64,000 nt of DNA, from IMG/VR virus record IMGVR_UViG_3300043394_000122, positions 2,423 to 66,422 of that record, one strand, 5' to 3'. Of the stretch, positions 1,694 through 48,313 are shown piece by piece. Every line of letters starts with the position of its first letter. The first letter of the stretch is position 1. Origin of the DNA: a virus (taxonomy: Duplodnaviria > Caudoviricetes). A model generated the notes under the pieces. The model saw only the letters and a list, made by a program, of their open reading frames with translations. It made no database searches and was not told the DNA's origin. A program made the translations under genes and the position numbers.

Positions 1694-3829
1694 CTAACGC
1701 CTGCCGTCTAAACGCACATCGAGTCGCGGTGCTCCCAACTGCCACATGGTGCCGAGGGAATCAGACTCCATCCGCAGAATCATTTGCCGTCCACGCACGC
1801 GCACGTACACCTGACCCGGCGTGACGTTGCGTTCAAACGCCGTATCTCCGCTATATGCCTCAATCGGGATAGTCGCTGTCCGCGTCACGCGGGCGTTGTC
1901 TGTACCACCGCTGGAGCGCGGAGATGTAAACCCGGAACCCGAGTTGTTCATCGGGATCAGCGTCATCTTGGCAGACGGAGCCGCTGCCGTGGACCCATCA
2001 AAGGTCACATCCGGCAGGATACGCCAGACAAACCCAAACTGGTGGCCATCTTCAATATCGAACTCCGCAGACTCGATGTAGGCAGTGATCGGAGCGGGCG
2101 TACCCGTCTCGTTGTCGTCCACACCTTCTTCATGGTTTACGAGATTGTGACTGTATGTTGCTGCCGCCGGAGTTTTGCGCAGGCCGGAGTCGATCCAAGC
2201 CGTGCGCGACAGCGTACCGTAGTACCAGATGTTTTCAAGGTAGTTGTAGACGACGTATTTATCTACGACGGTGGAATTCTTAGAGCAGTAGAACCACCAG
2301 ACCTCGTTGAAGCCCTCGTTCGTCCCAGCAAATACTTGCTGATTCTGCGAGTTGTTGAAGTCGTTGAAGACATACCGACGAAGGTCACAGTTGAGCGTCT
2401 TAACCGAACCGTCGTACACGTAGAACTTGTCCACACCCATCCAGTACACCACGCCCGAAGCCACCGCCACTGCGTTCTGTCCCTGAATTGAGATGTTGTC
2501 CCCCAGCAACTGCGATCCCCACACCACCGGAGGTCCAAGGTACTGCAGCGAGTACAGCGACGTGTCGGTCCAGACCAGAATCTCTTGCCGGGTCTGCTGA
2601 ACCGCAATGATCTCGGAGCCGTGAGACAGCGTGAGACTGCCTGCTTGGTTGGTCGCCTGTGGGTACCAGTTGACCGCGCTCTCTTGATCCGACCAGCGGA
2701 TCAGCATTGGGTTCTGCACCGCAGAGAAGTAGTCGTTGCACCCGAAGGCGAACACGAAGCGGCTGGTATCCGATACGAAGATCACGTTCTGCACCGTAGG
2801 CACAGCCTCCAGTACCGAAACGGAGTGCACACCGCTTTGCGAGCCCGTCGTGGTAATTGGTGCCCCACCGGAGGTAGCTGACAGATTAGCCGTTAACCCT
2901 TGCACGTTCTCAAGGTAGTACGTGGTACCCGCAGTCAGTCCGGTGGGAAGCGCACCTGTGGTGGCAAGTTTTACCGGCATGCCTGTGGAAAGCGGGGTGG
3001 AGAGTGTGATGACTGCCGGGGCAGCGATGGTGATCGTGACCGTGCCGCCCAAAGAGTTCAGGTTGACGCCACGCACTGCGGTACCGGCAGAAGCGTCCCA
3101 GTAGTACATACCGCCACCGCGAGGGCCGAAGATTAGGTCTTCACCGAAGTCCATTGCGCTCCACAGACGAAGCGCGGAGGTAGATGTAGCACCGACACCC
3201 CAACTGCCAGAACCCCAACCCCCAGCACCCCAGCCGACCAGCGGGAACTGGATTTCAGGGCCAACACTGAGTTGGTAGGCAGTGACAACTGAAGCACCGC
3301 CCCCAGGAGAACCCGCTGCATCGGTTGCGTTGGCCGTGGCACTGACCGTGATCGTGTAGGTGTTGCTGTCCACCAGCGTGATCTGGTGTTCCTTGTTCAG
3401 CACCCCAGCAGTGATGTTGCCGCCAAGCCCTACCGCACCAGAGAACGTGACGAAATCGCCGTTGACACAGCCGTGCGCCGTGTCTGCGACCGTGATGACT
3501 GAAGATCCAAGCGTGGCCGTGAACGGGTTTGTGAGGACAACCGTGGAGCGGATAGGCGTGATGTCGTAGTAGACCCCGCCCTGCTCAATGTAGTACTTCA
3601 GGTTGGTGCCCAGGCCCATCAGGTTCAGCGAACTCAGTGTGACCCAGTTCCACAGGTGACGACAAAGACCTAGAAACGTGCTGCCGGAAATGCGGTTCCA
3701 ACCACCGATGCGCTCAGGCGTACCTTGGCGGAAGCGAATCTTGTCGCATTCATACCACCCATTCTCCGACGCGTAGCGCGTGTTCTCTTTGTTTACGCCG
3801 GGTTTTAGCAGCAGCTTTTTTAACGGCAC
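1694..3829 (-). CDS. Tail protein, probably nozzle/tail tubular B-like (P22 gp10/T7 gp12 analogue)
   Basis: 711 aa, W/G-rich repeats consistent with a beta-propeller, with small T/A/G-rich inserted domains; position in tail block. Confidence 0.6.
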   Translation of the reverse strand: MPLKKLLLKPGVNKENTRYASENGWYECDKIRFRQGTPERIGGWNRISGSTFLGLCRHLWNWVTLSSLNLMGLGTNLKYYIEQGGVYYDITPIRSTVVLTNPFTATLGSSVITVADTAHGCVNGDFVTFSGAVGLGGNITAGVLNKEHQITLVDSNTYTITVSATANATDAAGSPGGGASVVTAYQLSVGPEIQFPLVGWGAGGWGSGSWGVGATSTSALRLWSAMDFGEDLIFGPRGGGMYYWDASAGTAVRGVNLNSLGGTVTITIAAPAVITLSTPLSTGMPVKLATTGALPTGLTAGTTYYLENVQGLTANLSATSGGAPITTTGSQSGVHSVSVLEAVPTVQNVIFVSDTSRFVFAFGCNDYFSAVQNPMLIRWSDQESAVNWYPQATNQAGSLTLSHGSEIIAVQQTRQEILVWTDTSLYSLQYLGPPVVWGSQLLGDNISIQGQNAVAVASGVVYWMGVDKFYVYDGSVKTLNCDLRRYVFNDFNNSQNQQVFAGTNEGFNEVWWFYCSKNSTVVDKYVVYNYLENIWYYGTLSRTAWIDSGLRKTPAAATYSHNLVNHEEGVDDNETGTPAPITAYIESAEFDIEDGHQFGFVWRILPDVTFDGSTAAAPSAKMTLIPMNNSGSGFTSPRSSGGTDNARVTRTATIPIEAYSGDTAFERNVTPGQVYVRVRGRQMILRMESDSLGTMWQLGAPRLDVRLDGRR

Positions 3830-44797: not shown

Positions 44798-47700
44798 ATG
44801 GAGATCGTTGACAACAAACTGCTGGTCTTCAAGACCCGCAACCCGCATAAGTACAACCTGATACCGAAGCACAAAGTCTTACGCCACTTTGAAAATGGCG
44901 GTGCTGAGATTGCAGTCTACTGGTCGCTTGACGAGGTGCGCGTGCTCAAGAACCTGGGCGTGCGCGACGTACCGTCGCCGATCTACGGTCGGTATGACTG
45001 GCCGGGTCGTTACACGCCGATGGCCCACCAGAAGGAGACGGCGAGCTTCCTGACACTGCACCGCAGGGCGTTCGTTCTGTCAGAGCCTGGGTGTGTAGAC
45101 GCTGATACGGAGTACCTATCGCCTACTGGCTGGAAGCGCATTGCGGACTACACGGGCGGGCAGGTAGCGCAGTACCACCCGGACACAGGTGAAGCGGAGT
45201 TCGTAACGCCTACTGAGTTCGTCAAGCTGCCTTGCCAGGACATGGTACGCATCAAGACGCATTACGGTTTGGATCAGTTGCTGAGTCCAGAACATCGCGT
45301 TGTTGTTCGCTCCAACGCTGCCGACAAGTGGTGCGTGATGTCTGCTGCGGAGTTGTTGGACAAGCACGATAAATGGCACGCAGGCATACGCCTGCCGAGG
45401 AACGACGCCAGTATCAGCTTCTCGCACGCAGCAATACCAACGGCGTTTCGCATCAAAGGTGTTGAAGCGGGCATACCGCTAACCGATGCGCAGCTTCGCG
45501 TACAGATCGCCGTGATAGCGGATGCGTACTTTGGGAACAACACGACGTTGTGCACCGTCCGTCTGAAATGCGAACGCAAAGTGCAGCGCATGCGTACGCT
45601 GCTTATTGATGCAGGCATCGAGTACACAGCGCGCGAACAAAACACGGCTACGGCTACTGGGTTCACCATCTTCCGCTTCCGCGCTCCGTGGCACGTTAAG
45701 GAGTTTGACGAGCGCTTCTGGCAAGCAACTCCTGAACAGCTTCGTCTCATTGGGGAAGAAGTGCTGCACTGGGATGGAACGATTCGCGGCGGCAACAAAG
45801 GCGGTTCGTTCTCAACTACATCCAAAGCATCGGCAGACTTCATCCAATATGCGTGGGCAGCAACAGGCACCACAGCGCGCATCACAGAAGATGCGAGGCC
45901 GGATAAGTACAAAGGCGGTGTCTGCTACACCGTGCAGCAACGCGGAGAAGTGCGGGGCGGCGAGCACGGTCTGCTGACGCTGCGAAACAGAAACAGCGCG
46001 ACCATGTACCCCGCGCCGTCCACTGACGGTTACAAGTACTGCTTCATGGTACCGAGCACGTACCTTGTACTGCGCCGAAACGGGTGTGTGTTCTTGACTG
46101 GTAACACCGGCAAGACGCTGTCTGCCTTGTGGGCAGCGGACTACCTGATGCAGCGTGGCGAGGTGCGCCGCGTGCTGATCCTGTGCCCCCTGTCGATCAT
46201 GCACAGCGCATGGATGCAGGACATCGGCAACAGCATCATCCACCGCTCCGCAGTGGTGGCGCATCACGCCCAAGCCGCACGCCGCATCGAGATCATTCAG
46301 CAGGACTTTGAGATCGTCATCATCAACTACGAGGGGCTGAACCTTGTGGCCGATGAAGTGCGCAATGACGGTCGGTTTGACCTGATCATCGTGGACGAAG
46401 CCAACGCGTACAAGAACGCGCAGACCAAGCGCTGGAAGGCCCTGGCGTCGATCCTCAAGCCCGAAACGTACCTGTGGATGATGACGGGCACGCCCGCCTC
46501 GCAGTCGCCGATGGATGCCTTCGGGCTGGCCAAGCTGGTCAACCCCAACGGCGTGCCGAAGTTCATGACGGCGTGGCGAGACATGGTGATGAACAAGCTC
46601 ACCATGTTCAAGTGGGCACCCAAGCGCGATGCAGCCGAGAAGGTGCACAAGGCGCTGCAGCCCGCCATCCGCTTCACCAAGGCCCAGTGCCTGGACCTAC
46701 CGCCCGTCGTGACGATGACGCGTGAAGTCCCGCTGACCCCGCAGCAAGCGAAGTACTACAACCTGATCAAGGATCAGATGGTGGCCCAGGCATCCGGGGA
46801 AACCATCACTGCGGTCAACGCCGCTGCTGCCTTGAACAAGCTGCTGCAAATATCTTGTATTGCGTATAATACCCCGGTGCTGACGAATCACGGCTGGGTT
46901 CCTATTCAATCGCTACAAGCTGACGATCTGGTGTGGGACGGCGTTGAGTTCGTTAAGCACAAAGGGTTACTGCCGCGCGGGCGCAAACGCACGATAGTGC
47001 AGTACGGGGTACGAATGACGCCAGACCATGAGGTGCTTACAAATGAAGGATGGAGGGTCGCTTCAGCGTGCGCTGGACTTGACCGGGCAAGTGTTCGGCT
47101 TCCTGACCGTAGTGTGTCGTCAAGGTACGAGCGGTGGGAAAACCAAAAAGGCCCGCTGGCTTTGTCGTTGTCAGTGCGGCAACGAAGTGATACGAGAGAG
47201 CCAGTACCTTCGTACGAAGCATCGTCAGACGCCACGACATTGTGGCTGTCAGCACGGCAACAAAACGCACAGCATGTCGAAGACCCGGCAGTACCACATC
47301 TGGTCCAACATGCGACGACGCTGCTTGTCACCACAAGACAAAGACTGGCACAACTATGGAGCGCGTGGCATCACAGTGTGCGAGCGTTGGGCAACGAGCT
47401 TCGATTCCTTTTGGGAGGCCATGGGGCCTACATACAAGCCGACGCTATCGTTGGAGCGAGTAGACAACAACGGACCGTATTCTCCGAGCAACTGCCGTTG
47501 GGCAACCGCGCAAGAACAAGCCCGCAACACACGCAACACCGTGTGGTTGGATACGCCAAAGGGGCGAATGACTTTGGAAGACGCAGCCAAAGCGTACGGG
47601 CTGCGGTCAGTTACGTTGGGCGCAAGATTGACACGCTACCAGTGGCCGCTAGAGAAAGCGCTGACGACGCCTGGGAGGAAGACGTATTCGACATCGCGTT

Positions 47701-48313
47701 CTGCGGACCGCGAAGCCGCTTCGTAGTTCAAGGCACTGATGGACAACCGCTCATAGTGCACAACTGCGGCGCTGCCTACACGGACAACAAGGAGGTGGTG
47801 GAGTTCGATGCCACACCGCGCCTGAACGTGCTGCTGGAGGCCCTGGAAGAGACTGACCGCAAGGTCATCATCTTCGCGCTGTTCCGATCGGTGATCGACA
47901 CCATCAGCCAGTTCCTGAACAAGAACGGCATCGCCTGTGAAGAGATTCACGGCGGGGTGACGGCCACCAAGCGGGGCGACATCATCAAGCGCTTCCAGAC
48001 GCAGGACACGCCGCGTGTGCTGGTCATGCAGCCTGCGGCTGCTGCGCACGGGATCACGCTGACTGCCGCCGACACGGTGATCTTCTACGGCCCGCTGATG
48101 AGTGTTGAGCAATACGTGCAGTGCTGCGCCCGGGCAGACCGCAAGGGCCAGAACGCCGACAAGGTCACAGTTATCCACATCCAGGGGTCGCCTGTGGAGA
48201 AGCGTGCGTTCGCTGCGCTGTCAGGCAAGGTGGACGACGCCCAACTGCTGGTGGACCTGTTCACCGCCGAAATTAAAGAAAGGGGGTTGCCAGACTCGAA
48301 AGGCCGTGTATGA
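44798..48313 (+). CDS. SNF2-family DNA helicase precursor with two inteins (about 530 aa after splicing)
   Basis: EPG|TGKT Walker A, IVDEA, MTGTP, FTK..C.DLP, GITLTAA, Q...RADR.GQ. Confidence 0.92.
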   Translation: MEIVDNKLLVFKTRNPHKYNLIPKHKVLRHFENGGAEIAVYWSLDEVRVLKNLGVRDVPSPIYGRYDWPGRYTPMAHQKETASFLTLHRRAFVLSEPGCVDADTEYLSPTGWKRIADYTGGQVAQYHPDTGEAEFVTPTEFVKLPCQDMVRIKTHYGLDQLLSPEHRVVVRSNAADKWCVMSAAELLDKHDKWHAGIRLPRNDASISFSHAAIPTAFRIKGVEAGIPLTDAQLRVQIAVIADAYFGNNTTLCTVRLKCERKVQRMRTLLIDAGIEYTAREQNTATATGFTIFRFRAPWHVKEFDERFWQATPEQLRLIGEEVLHWDGTIRGGNKGGSFSTTSKASADFIQYAWAATGTTARITEDARPDKYKGGVCYTVQQRGEVRGGEHGLLTLRNRNSATMYPAPSTDGYKYCFMVPSTYLVLRRNGCVFLTGNTGKTLSALWAADYLMQRGEVRRVLILCPLSIMHSAWMQDIGNSIIHRSAVVAHHAQAARRIEIIQQDFEIVIINYEGLNLVADEVRNDGRFDLIIVDEANAYKNAQTKRWKALASILKPETYLWMMTGTPASQSPMDAFGLAKLVNPNGVPKFMTAWRDMVMNKLTMFKWAPKRDAAEKVHKALQPAIRFTKAQCLDLPPVVTMTREVPLTPQQAKYYNLIKDQMVAQASGETITAVNAAAALNKLLQISCIAYNTPVLTNHGWVPIQSLQADDLVWDGVEFVKHKGLLPRGRKRTIVQYGVRMTPDHEVLTNEGWRVASACAGLDRASVRLPDRSVSSRYERWENQKGPLALSLSVRQRSDTREPVPSYEASSDATTLWLSARQQNAQHVEDPAVPHLVQHATTLLVTTRQRLAQLWSAWHHSVRALGNELRFLLGGHGAYIQADAIVGASRQQRTVFSEQLPLGNRARTSPQHTQHRVVGYAKGANDFGRRSQSVRAAVSYVGRKIDTLPVAARESADDAWEEDVFDIAFCGPRSRFVVQGTDGQPLIVHNCGAAYTDNKEVVEFDATPRLNVLLEALEETDRKVIIFALFRSVIDTISQFLNKNGIACEEIHGGVTATKRGDIIKRFQTQDTPRVLVMQPAAAAHGITLTAADTVIFYGPLMSVEQYVQCCARADRKGQNADKVTVIHIQGSPVEKRAFAALSGKVDDAQLLVDLFTAEIKERGLPDSKGRV
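45092..46105 (+). mobile_element. Intein 1 (338 aa) with LAGLIDADG-like endonuclease remnant, inserted in Walker A
   Basis: C1 (CVDADTEYLSPTGW), block B SPEHR, IAVIADAYF and VLHWDGT motifs, block F YCFMVPS, terminal TGN with Thr+1. Confidence 0.9.
46856..47764 (+). mobile_element. Intein 2 (303 aa), no in-frame endonuclease
   Basis: C1 (CIAYNTPVLTNHGW), block B TPDHEV, block F VFDIAFCGPRSRF, terminal VHN with Cys+1; excision restores LLQIS-CGAAY. Confidence 0.9.
47043..47726 (+). CDS. HNH endonuclease nested in the +1 frame of intein 2
   Basis: DLTGQVFG.LTV...WLCRCQCG...HCGC...H.MS.T..Y.IW..M..RC...YGARGITVCERW..F..F...MG...SLERVDNNGPY.P.NCRWAT..EQARN; GAGGTG SD 7 nt before ATG 47043 (alternative ATG 47028). 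Confidence 0.88.
   Translation: MKDGGSLQRALDLTGQVFGFLTVVCRQGTSGGKTKKARWLCRCQCGNEVIRESQYLRTKHRQTPRHCGCQHGNKTHSMSKTRQYHIWSNMRRRCLSPQDKDWHNYGARGITVCERWATSFDSFWEAMGPTYKPTLSLERVDNNGPYSPSNCRWATAQEQARNTRNTVWLDTPKGRMTLEDAAKAYGLRSVTLGARLTRYQWPLEKALTTPGRKTYSTSRSADREAAS

Follow-up and report, generated by a model that had tools for sequence, protein, structure and literature searches.

An intein in the SNF2-family helicase gene of a metagenomic phage carries a complete nuclease gene of the free-standing type, on the same strand and in the +1 reading frame. The helicase gene lies in a stretch of 64,000 nucleotides, referred to here as the window, from a virus of the Caudoviricetes (positions 2,423 to 66,422 of IMG/VR record IMGVR_UViG_3300043394_000122, a complete metagenomic phage genome of 66,422 bp with direct terminal repeats). 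It holds two inteins, and the nested gene is found in the second, which we call intein 2. We infer splicing, internal initiation, nuclease activity and the DNA target from comparisons of sequences and from structural models, and on this basis we regard it as highly probable that intein 2 is a class-1 intein combined with a separately translated +1 nuclease gene that drives its homing.

Intein 2 and the gene nested in it

Intein 2 runs from a TGT codon at 46856 to an AAC codon ending at 47764 and reads LLQIS/CIAYNTPVLT ... MTPDHEVLT ... DVFDIAFCGPRSRFVV ... LIVHN/CGAAY, where slashes here and below mark the splice junctions. It is placed exactly between the LLQIS and the CG of intein-less helicase alleles, which together form a conserved motif of the host protein. 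In an alignment of 57 relatives, residues C1, T55, H58, D279, H302 and N303 are invariant, with T55-P-D-H58 forming block B. By these motifs intein 2 is a class-1 intein, and it would be expected to splice autocatalytically.

In the +1 frame, the same DNA has no stop codon between 47019 and a TAG at 47724-47726, and ATG codons lie at 47028 and 47043. Read from the second ATG, the nested gene is 684 nt long with its stop codon and lies entirely within intein 2, between blocks B and F, with the TAG overlapping the Phe-Val-Val codons of block F. The translated product gave full-length profile matches to phrog_374 ('HNH endonuclease', E 1.3e-58) and to phrog_3377 (E 2.5e-49). The middle of the intein, translated in the intein frame, has no match in Pfam, PHROG or NCBIfam.

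A preliminary description of this DNA, made from its letters and a list of open reading frames (ORFs), had proposed intact splicing motifs around a middle that reads like off-frame sequence, about 680 nt of dual coding, a stop codon in block F and a complete HNH gene in the +1 frame, and had suggested a profile search of both frames as a check. That search separates the two frames clearly, the nuclease frame matching phrog_374 and the intein-frame middle matching nothing. The splicing motifs proved invariant in the 57 relatives and the ends of the intein were modelled as a HINT fold; the middle shows neither a family match nor a confident fold in the helicase frame; and the extent of dual coding and the position of the TAG are as described. 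The nested gene is indeed a complete gene of a nuclease family, and the more specific designation 'HNH' derives from annotation and weak matches.

The two-frame layout is conserved across a large family

We scanned IMG/VR with the intein alignment and confirmed 162 loci, 80 of which were examined together with the window, Hamiltonella phage APSE-1, Caulobacter phage GB2A and Shewanella phage SFCi1, giving 84 loci. The host frame has no stop codon in any of the 84, and the third frame has many stops in all of them. At each locus a +1 ORF is present at the same offset, 195-251 codons long with one exception of 169 codons, and each of these ORFs (72 of them distinct) matches the window nuclease at E<=1e-38. 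The ORF is intact in 83 of the 84 loci, which span 37-100% identity. The exception is an APSE-like polymerase intein (L076:1201-2118, IMGVR_UViG_3300002732_000012), in which the host frame is open and the +1 ORF appears to be decaying.

A query with the intein-frame translation against 5.8 billion proteins returned 299 clusters, and nearly all of the best 120 align over all 303 residues. The clusters comprise SNF2 helicases (KLLQIS/C...HN/CG), PolA proteins with the intein at three adjacent sites in the YGGKLxEN motif, and a few other proteins. Full-length matches with 30-37% identity include the polymerases of the Hamiltonella phages APSE-1 to -7, of four Caulobacter phages and of Shewanella phage SFCi1, and the nuclease-frame translation matches the same phage polymerases, at an offset that is 190-196 nt into the intein in each case. 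No in-frame version of the nuclease was found in this intein family among the 84 loci or the approximately 120 protein clusters; the hits of partial coverage proved to be P0036, which has a mini-intein, and P0095, a polymerase with one mini-intein and one intein of different middle (both described below). A nucleotide-level search of phage records with positions 46600-48000 gave no match, and relatives were found at the protein level only.

The closest relative, L004/L055, has the same helicase without intein 1, and its 909-nt intein aligns to that of the window with zero gaps. Compensating sequencing indels were considered as a source of the frame offset and are excluded because the L004 intein aligns without a gap and because the offset is shared by 84 of 84 loci; an indel error, which the preliminary description had named as an outcome that would overturn its reading, does not account for a frame relation found at every locus.

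Deposited records under-call the nested gene, because it is unannotated in GB2A (L002, 1685-2344) and in SFCi1 (L003, 1685-2362) and truncated in APSE-1 (L001, 1685-2353), where it is annotated only from an internal ATG (1931-2353 of the locus) and has a GTG with a Shine-Dalgarno site near 1703. A 1154-aa PolA protein (P0095) has two inteins of the same splicing-domain family, one of 308 aa at residues 470-777 and a mini-intein of 139 aa at residues 936-1074. The middle of the longer intein cannot be aligned to the nuclease overlap and may contain a different nested or antisense gene.

Selection acts on the nuclease frame in the overlap and keeps the host frame open

The wobble base of the nuclease frame falls on codon position 1 of the intein frame, so that substitutions by codon position distinguish the two frames. 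We counted these between the window and L004 and, as mismatch fractions, in 200 family pairs with 60-97% nucleotide identity (Table 1). In both comparisons wobble variation tracks the nuclease frame in the middle of the intein and the intein frame at its two splicing ends. When the nuclease frame is compared, the window and L004 share 76% of their amino acids, against 49% for the intein-frame middle (residues 58-290) and 47% for the stop-filled third frame. Together, the wobble pattern and these identities indicate that the middle is under purifying selection as a nuclease gene and that the host frame is selected there only for openness.

Table 1. Variation by intein-frame codon position (positions 1/2/3) in three regions of intein 2
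Region	Window vs L004, substitutions	200 family pairs, mismatch fractions
N-terminal splicing region	6/8/32	0.26/0.21/0.56
Overlap	103/42/43	0.50/0.28/0.27
C-terminal splicing region	2/2/8	0.19/0.17/0.58

Openness of the host frame leaves a countable trace in the nuclease gene. A nuclease codon that ends in T creates a host-frame stop when the following codon starts with AA, AG or GA, and we refer to the positions before such codons as risky contexts. In 71 distinct nested genes, T-ending codons occupy 0 of 3675 risky contexts compared with 20.4% of other contexts, and in the nested gene of the window they occupy 0 of 47 risky contexts compared with 35 of 179 others. Ten free-standing homologues have T-ending codons in 25.7% of risky contexts and 27.4% of others, with 3-36 stops in the corresponding frame. 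Synonymous shuffling of the window nuclease ORF produced a mean of 7.2 intein-frame stops, and none of 1000 shuffles was stop-free; across the nested genes the median probability of zero stops was 0 in 1000.

These counts point to selection on synonymous sites as the explanation of the open host frame. At the +1 offset every host-frame stop should be removable without any change to the nuclease protein; the other offset differs because a Met codon (ATG) before a codon starting with A makes an unavoidable TGA. G+C content (0.595 in the window, 0.564 in the intein) was considered as a sufficient cause of the open frame and was rejected, given the shuffles and a range of 39% to 65% among nested members. 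The preliminary description had been right to expect purifying selection on the nuclease frame with only stop avoidance in the linker, as the codon-position counts and identities agree, and its suggestion that G+C-rich codon use makes the frame easier to keep open is insufficient.

Start signals of the nested gene

The Shine-Dalgarno-like string GAGGTG is made of the His-Glu-Val codons of block B (CAT GAG GTG) and precedes ATG 47043 by 7 nt; ATG 47028, which is in frame with the nuclease, has no Shine-Dalgarno sequence ahead of it. ATG 47043 is the likely start of the nested gene. The arrangement, already pointed out in the preliminary description, is confirmed by its recurrence in many relatives. 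Across the family we observed three recurrent start layouts, each with an ATG or GTG behind a Shine-Dalgarno-like string, and in two of them the string consists of block-B codons. The window type has an ATG 7-8 nt after CAYGAGGTN (His-Glu-Val of block B), and the layout CAYGAGGTN-N7-ATG is present in many relatives, for example L003, L041, L050, L062, L079 and L093. The APSE/Caulobacter type has an ATG or GTG after GAAGGNTGG (Glu-Gly-Trp codons of block B), and the third type, found in other helicase inteins, has an ATG after GGAGGA.

No promoter-like site was found inside the helicase gene, and the predicted folding of the RNA around the internal start is no stronger than that of shuffled sequence (z 0.75). 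Internal initiation on the helicase mRNA would be the most economical reading of how the nested gene is expressed.

Predicted structures of the two products

Both frames were modelled with AlphaFold2 (AF2), using a 68-sequence alignment for the nuclease and a 57-sequence alignment for the intein frame. In the intein-frame model the pLDDT score (predicted local distance difference test) is 91-98 at the two ends only (93-98 for residues 1-80 and 91-97 for residues 272-303) and 38-67 between them. A Foldseek search with the confident parts retrieved mini-intein structures, with the Ssp DnaB, gp41-1, Npu DnaE and Mtu RecA inteins at the top, at probability 1.00 but with E of only about 1e-3. The linker of intein 2 is thus modelled as unstructured, and the host frame there appears to be free of amino-acid selection.

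The nuclease model has a mean pLDDT of 89.1 and three parts: an N-terminal small beta-barrel with a CxC...CxC cluster, a central domain, and a helix-turn-helix-like C-terminal tail. The central domain (model residues 73-166) superposes on the HNH restriction enzyme PacI (PDB 3m7k) over 79 residues with Z 6.0 and a root-mean-square deviation of 3.1 Å; in the model, residues 136-139 and 151-154 form strands and residues 156-161 the helix that comes after them. The family profile weakly matches (E 0.035) the beta-beta-alpha segment of I-HmuI (PDB 1u3e), an HNH homing endonuclease, and in that alignment N150, which is invariant, and N162, present in at least 90% of sequences, occupy both Asn positions. 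PacI and I-HmuI are beta-beta-alpha-metal nucleases, and the central domain may have a core of that type, with weak matches in each case. Residues C43, C45, C69, H76, C94, Y146 and N150 are among those invariant in the nuclease family, and the Cys/His pattern is compatible with two zinc sites.

Searching the PDB by sequence to E 10 returned only I-HmuI and two helix-turn-helix proteins. The nuclease model had 152 matches in BFVD at E<=1e-3, with labels that include HNH endonuclease, PVL ORF-50-like, HTH homing endonuclease, AP2-domain (AP2/ERF) and 'DNA-binding domain protein'.

Distribution and history of the intein

Carriers of the intein include the window, L004 and at least 10 distinct helicase loci. 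As an intein-less set we took the 80 closest helicase homologues in IMG/VR (L099-L178), which are 76-85% identical to the window helicase. Intein 2 is absent from all 80, and the insertion site reads through as KLLQIS/(C, A, S or T)G, uninterrupted. Cys is the +1 residue of 65 of these alleles; among the other 15, Ala was counted in 9, Thr in 3 and Ser in 2. Alleles with Ala would be unable to support splicing if invaded, and might then be either immune or lethal targets.

A 670-aa SNF2 helicase (P0036) has a 145-aa mini-intein at residues 347-491, at the same KLLQIS/C site. Its ends are 60-66% identical to those of the window intein, and the nuclease gene is cleanly deleted, a natural demonstration, in sequence terms, that the intein middle is dispensable. 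The APSE polymerase intein has been differentially lost (Rouil et al., PMC7313666). The intein-less alleles, the mini-intein of P0036, the shortened +1 ORF of L076 and the losses in APSE match the steps through which a homing cycle would be expected to pass.

A tree of the nuclease proteins, built from the 71 nested genes and free-standing genes, places all 71 nested genes on one side of a branch with support 98. Within them the helicase inteins form one clade (support 97, 10 rows) and the PolA inteins another (support 100, 57 rows), the latter with repeated moves between adjacent PolA sites. Because of this grouping the overlap predates the split between helicase and PolA host genes, and one extein switch is enough to explain the two.

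Another PolA intein stands apart from this family (L005:2230-3243 on the + strand, IMGVR_UViG_3300044295_000254). It is 338 aa long, reads PAFQ/C...VVHN/T and carries a member of the nuclease family at +1 (ORF 2489-3139). Its splicing domain has no detectable similarity to that of the window family, and its nuclease groups with the free-standing genes with a weak support of 80. It may represent a separate capture event with the same frame offset.

The host gene and its other intein

The features of the helicase gene are listed in Table 2. The gene product matches the Pfam families SNF2-rel_dom (E 4.9e-25) and Helicase_C (E 3.3e-17), and has a predicted mature length of 530 aa once the two inteins are removed. 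Intein 1 has an in-frame, LAGLIDADG-like middle, with a weak LAGLIDADG_3 match (E 0.0016) that is below the curated cut-off, and a Gly replaces the His before its terminal Asn. L004, which is without intein 1, reads SEPGTGKT at this site. The helicase gene thus has a canonical intein (intein 1) and an unrelated, non-canonical one (intein 2) side by side.

Table 2. Features of the helicase gene and its inteins (positions in the window)
Feature	Coordinates	Strand	Description
SNF2-family helicase precursor gene	44798..48313	+	single open ORF, 1171 aa; from ORF list, translation and Pfam
Intein 1	45092..46105	+	338 aa, in Walker A motif (SEPG/C...GN/TGKT); outside the dual-coding element
Intein 2	46856..47764	+	909 nt, 303 aa, class-1 type by motifs; Cys1, block B TPDH, block F, terminal HN
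N-terminal splicing half of HINT domain	46856..47095	+	intein residues 1-80, blocks A and B; single-coding to 47042
Shine-Dalgarno-like GAGGTG	47030..47035	+	within block B, ahead of ATG 47043
Nested HNH-like gene (phrog_374 / 'PVL ORF-50-like')	47043..47726	+	227 aa, TAG included; putative homing endonuclease
Intein-frame linker, dual-coding core	47096..47668	+	intein residues 81-271
C-terminal splicing half	47669..47764	+	intein residues 272-303, with blocks F and G and the terminal HN
+1 Cys codon of C-extein	47765..47767	+	predicted trans-esterification nucleophile; from sequence

Proposed mechanism and alternatives

We propose two readings of the helicase mRNA. Ribosomes translating in the helicase frame would pass through the whole intein and make the two HINT halves and, connecting them, an unstructured linker about 190 aa long, whose sole role would be to contain no stop codons; the intein would then excise itself and restore the SNF2 motif KLLQIS-CG. 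Other ribosomes would initiate at ATG 47043 by way of GAGGTG and make a separate protein of 227 aa, with a predicted N-terminal zinc-ribbon/beta-barrel, a beta-beta-alpha domain resembling those of PacI and I-HmuI in the centre, and a helix-turn-helix at the C-terminus. The most likely role of this protein is to cut intein-less helicase alleles of co-infecting phages, with repair copying the intein in. Upkeep of the overlap would follow from selection on the nuclease protein together with the barring of T at the nuclease wobble position before codons starting with AA, AG or GA, a rule that alone could keep the helicase frame open at zero amino-acid cost to the nuclease.

Several observations weigh against a homing nuclease or against its recent activity. 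The nested protein has zero matches in Pfam or NCBIfam, which leaves the HNH label soft. Foldseek found nothing in the PDB for the nuclease model at E<=0.001, and PacI, the best structural match in a wide VIA-align search, reaches only the Z of 6.0 given above. In the weak I-HmuI alignment the catalytic Asp-His pair corresponds to Glu/Asp-Arg139, so that the canonical catalytic HNH His appears to be replaced by Arg139 and any catalysis would be non-canonical. PacI itself is not known to have the catalytic His and uses a Tyr instead, and Tyr146 would presumably fit that role. The single helicase clade would be expected from long vertical co-inheritance no less than from homing. In the window-L004 pair the nuclease is 76% and the N-terminal splicing region 81% identical in amino acids, compared with 76-85% for the helicase segment among close relatives; the intein is no more similar than the exteins, and there is therefore no sign of recent transfer in the window-L004 lineage.

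One alternative is that the nested gene is expressed but its product does not act as the homing nuclease of the intein, being instead a DNA-binding or other phage protein, or a nuclease with another target, for which the linker is simply a harmless site. The Arg in place of the canonical His, the AP2/ERF and 'DNA-binding domain protein' labels of some BFVD relatives, the helix-turn-helix-like C-terminal module and the lack of visible recent transfer between the window and L004 all suit it. We nevertheless consider it unlikely: the free-standing relatives are typical phage genes of the homing-endonuclease type, the gene occupies the usual place of an intein endonuclease between blocks B and F, the patchy presence among close helicase alleles and at several sites in two genes needs a mobility engine, and the decay forms in L076 and P0036 are those that a homing cycle predicts. 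Those same degraded and deleted versions could also be expected if the +1 ORF were a decaying relic of a once in-frame endonuclease, leaving a mini-intein with a junk linker and a nuclease that is not made. This is very improbable, since wobble variation tracks the nuclease frame both in the window-L004 pair and in the 200 family pairs, the ORF has stayed intact in 83 of 84 loci over a range of 37-100% identity, start codons are kept with their Shine-Dalgarno sites, and an in-frame version is missing from the 84 loci and about 120 protein clusters.

Two further explanations concern the frame itself. The nuclease might be reached by a programmed +1 frameshift near block B, giving a fusion of N-extein, N-intein and nuclease; the 8 codons upstream of ATG 47043 are open as well, and the overlap starts within a conserved block. 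We give this hardly any weight, because an ATG or GTG with a Shine-Dalgarno-like string recurs in three layouts and positions rather than at one fixed shift site, the RNA at the start is no better folded than shuffled sequence, and free-standing homologues start at the equivalent position. Finally, as the genome is a metagenome-assembled virus record, the offset could in principle be an assembly or sequencing artefact, caused by a pair of indels that offset each other in an ordinary in-frame HNH intein. The gapless alignment to L004 and an offset that is identical in 84 of 84 loci (72 distinct nested ORFs), the APSE, Caulobacter and Shewanella isolates included, reduce the chance of this to almost nothing.

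Returning to the reading of intein 2 as a splicing element with a separately translated homing nuclease, we also considered a broader proposal, to which we assign somewhat less than an even chance: that all of these loci (at least 160 viral contigs and about 300 clusters) belong to one large, old overprinted family in which intein and nuclease have co-evolved as two products, and that the +1 offset is non-accidental. The +1 frame would then be the offset at which synonymous nuclease changes remove every host-frame stop. If true, this would supply a testable rule for the frame that a captured endonuclease gene would most probably come to occupy, and L005 would be an independent capture under the same rule.

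Comparison with known systems

Canonical bifunctional inteins, such as intein 1, share with intein 2 a HINT domain split by an endonuclease insert between blocks B and F and a position in a motif of a replication protein. They differ in that their nuclease is a domain of the excised intein, made at a dose equal to that of the host protein and able to use the splicing domain for DNA binding, whereas the nuclease of intein 2 is predicted to be a separate polypeptide with its own initiation signal. Separate translation would uncouple the dose of the nuclease from that of the host protein, which is impossible for canonical inteins.

Out-of-frame, same-strand intein endonucleases have been reported in actinophages (Gosselin, Arsenault and Gogarten, bioRxiv 10.1101/2025.01.02.630785), and the reference in the preliminary description to an actinobacteriophage intein survey that noted such endonucleases is correct in kind. 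As in intein 2, the nuclease gene of these inteins lies between the splicing blocks on the same strand but outside the reading frame of the intein, and the in-frame reading has no recognisable structure. The origin proposed in that work is a free-standing endonuclease gene invading an intein. The actinophage nucleases are endonuclease VII-like (IPR004211) and in 'frame 3', whereas those described here are phrog_374/PacI-like and in +1; and the actinophage host genes are terminase, minor capsid, thymidylate synthase and Pol III alpha, whereas here they are PolA and SNF2 genes of non-actinophages.

A second comparison is with a cyanobacterial dnaX intein in which a LAGLIDADG endonuclease is encoded out of frame (Phillips, DeSimone and Gogarten, bioRxiv 10.64898/2026.09.14.751524), an overlap whose first notice that preprint credits to Gorbalenya 1998. 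It shares with intein 2 an overlapping endonuclease ORF, low dN/dS in the endonuclease frame with a relaxed host frame, sporadic distribution and mini-intein derivatives; it differs in having a LAGLIDADG enzyme in a +2 ORF, a cellular (cyanobacterial) host gene and an unrelated intein. The ShiLan domain is a hidden out-of-frame HNH without an intein (Arsenault et al. 2025, PMC11855218). Like intein 2 it is an insertion kept free of stops in the host frame, with an HNH gene hidden in another frame. Unlike intein 2, which has the motifs of a bona fide intein, it has no splicing domain and is thought to stay in the host protein, and it has no detectable ribosome-binding site, whereas the nested gene of intein 2 has a strong Shine-Dalgarno sequence. 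Out-of-frame endonucleases are unmentioned in Kelley et al. 2016 (PMC5050341), and in the searchable literature we found no paper on a phrog_374/PacI-like +1 nuclease in PolA and SNF2 inteins.

The closest known counterpart is the P45/P46 pair of APSE-1 (NC_000935), which has the same intein and nuclease families as the window, in the +1 frame and at an offset of 190-196 nt. APSE-2 to -7, the Caulobacter phages GB2A, RW, RLK and KcrB and Shewanella phage SFCi1 belong to the same group. This group differs from the window in its host protein, PolA (YGGKL/CEN and neighbouring sites) rather than an SNF2 helicase, and in a GTG or ATG start behind GAAGGNTGG rather than CAYGAGGTN. RefSeq annotates P46 as an 'HNH endonuclease' inside P45, in truncated form, and a paper describing it as an out-of-frame intein endonuclease was not found in the searchable literature. 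The truncated call in APSE-1 and the lack of any call in GB2A and SFCi1 illustrate how gene callers miss the nested gene.

The family supports the view that the splicing domain came first and the endonuclease was captured later, and offers a large sample in which the captured gene has long been a separate cistron. For the study of overlapping genes it provides a clean, countable signature, with 0 of 3675 forbidden wobble bases, and cultured relatives such as the phages of Caulobacter CB15 make the idea testable. The layout is of a kind already described in preprints of 2025-26, and intein 2 represents the helicase branch of a large conserved family.

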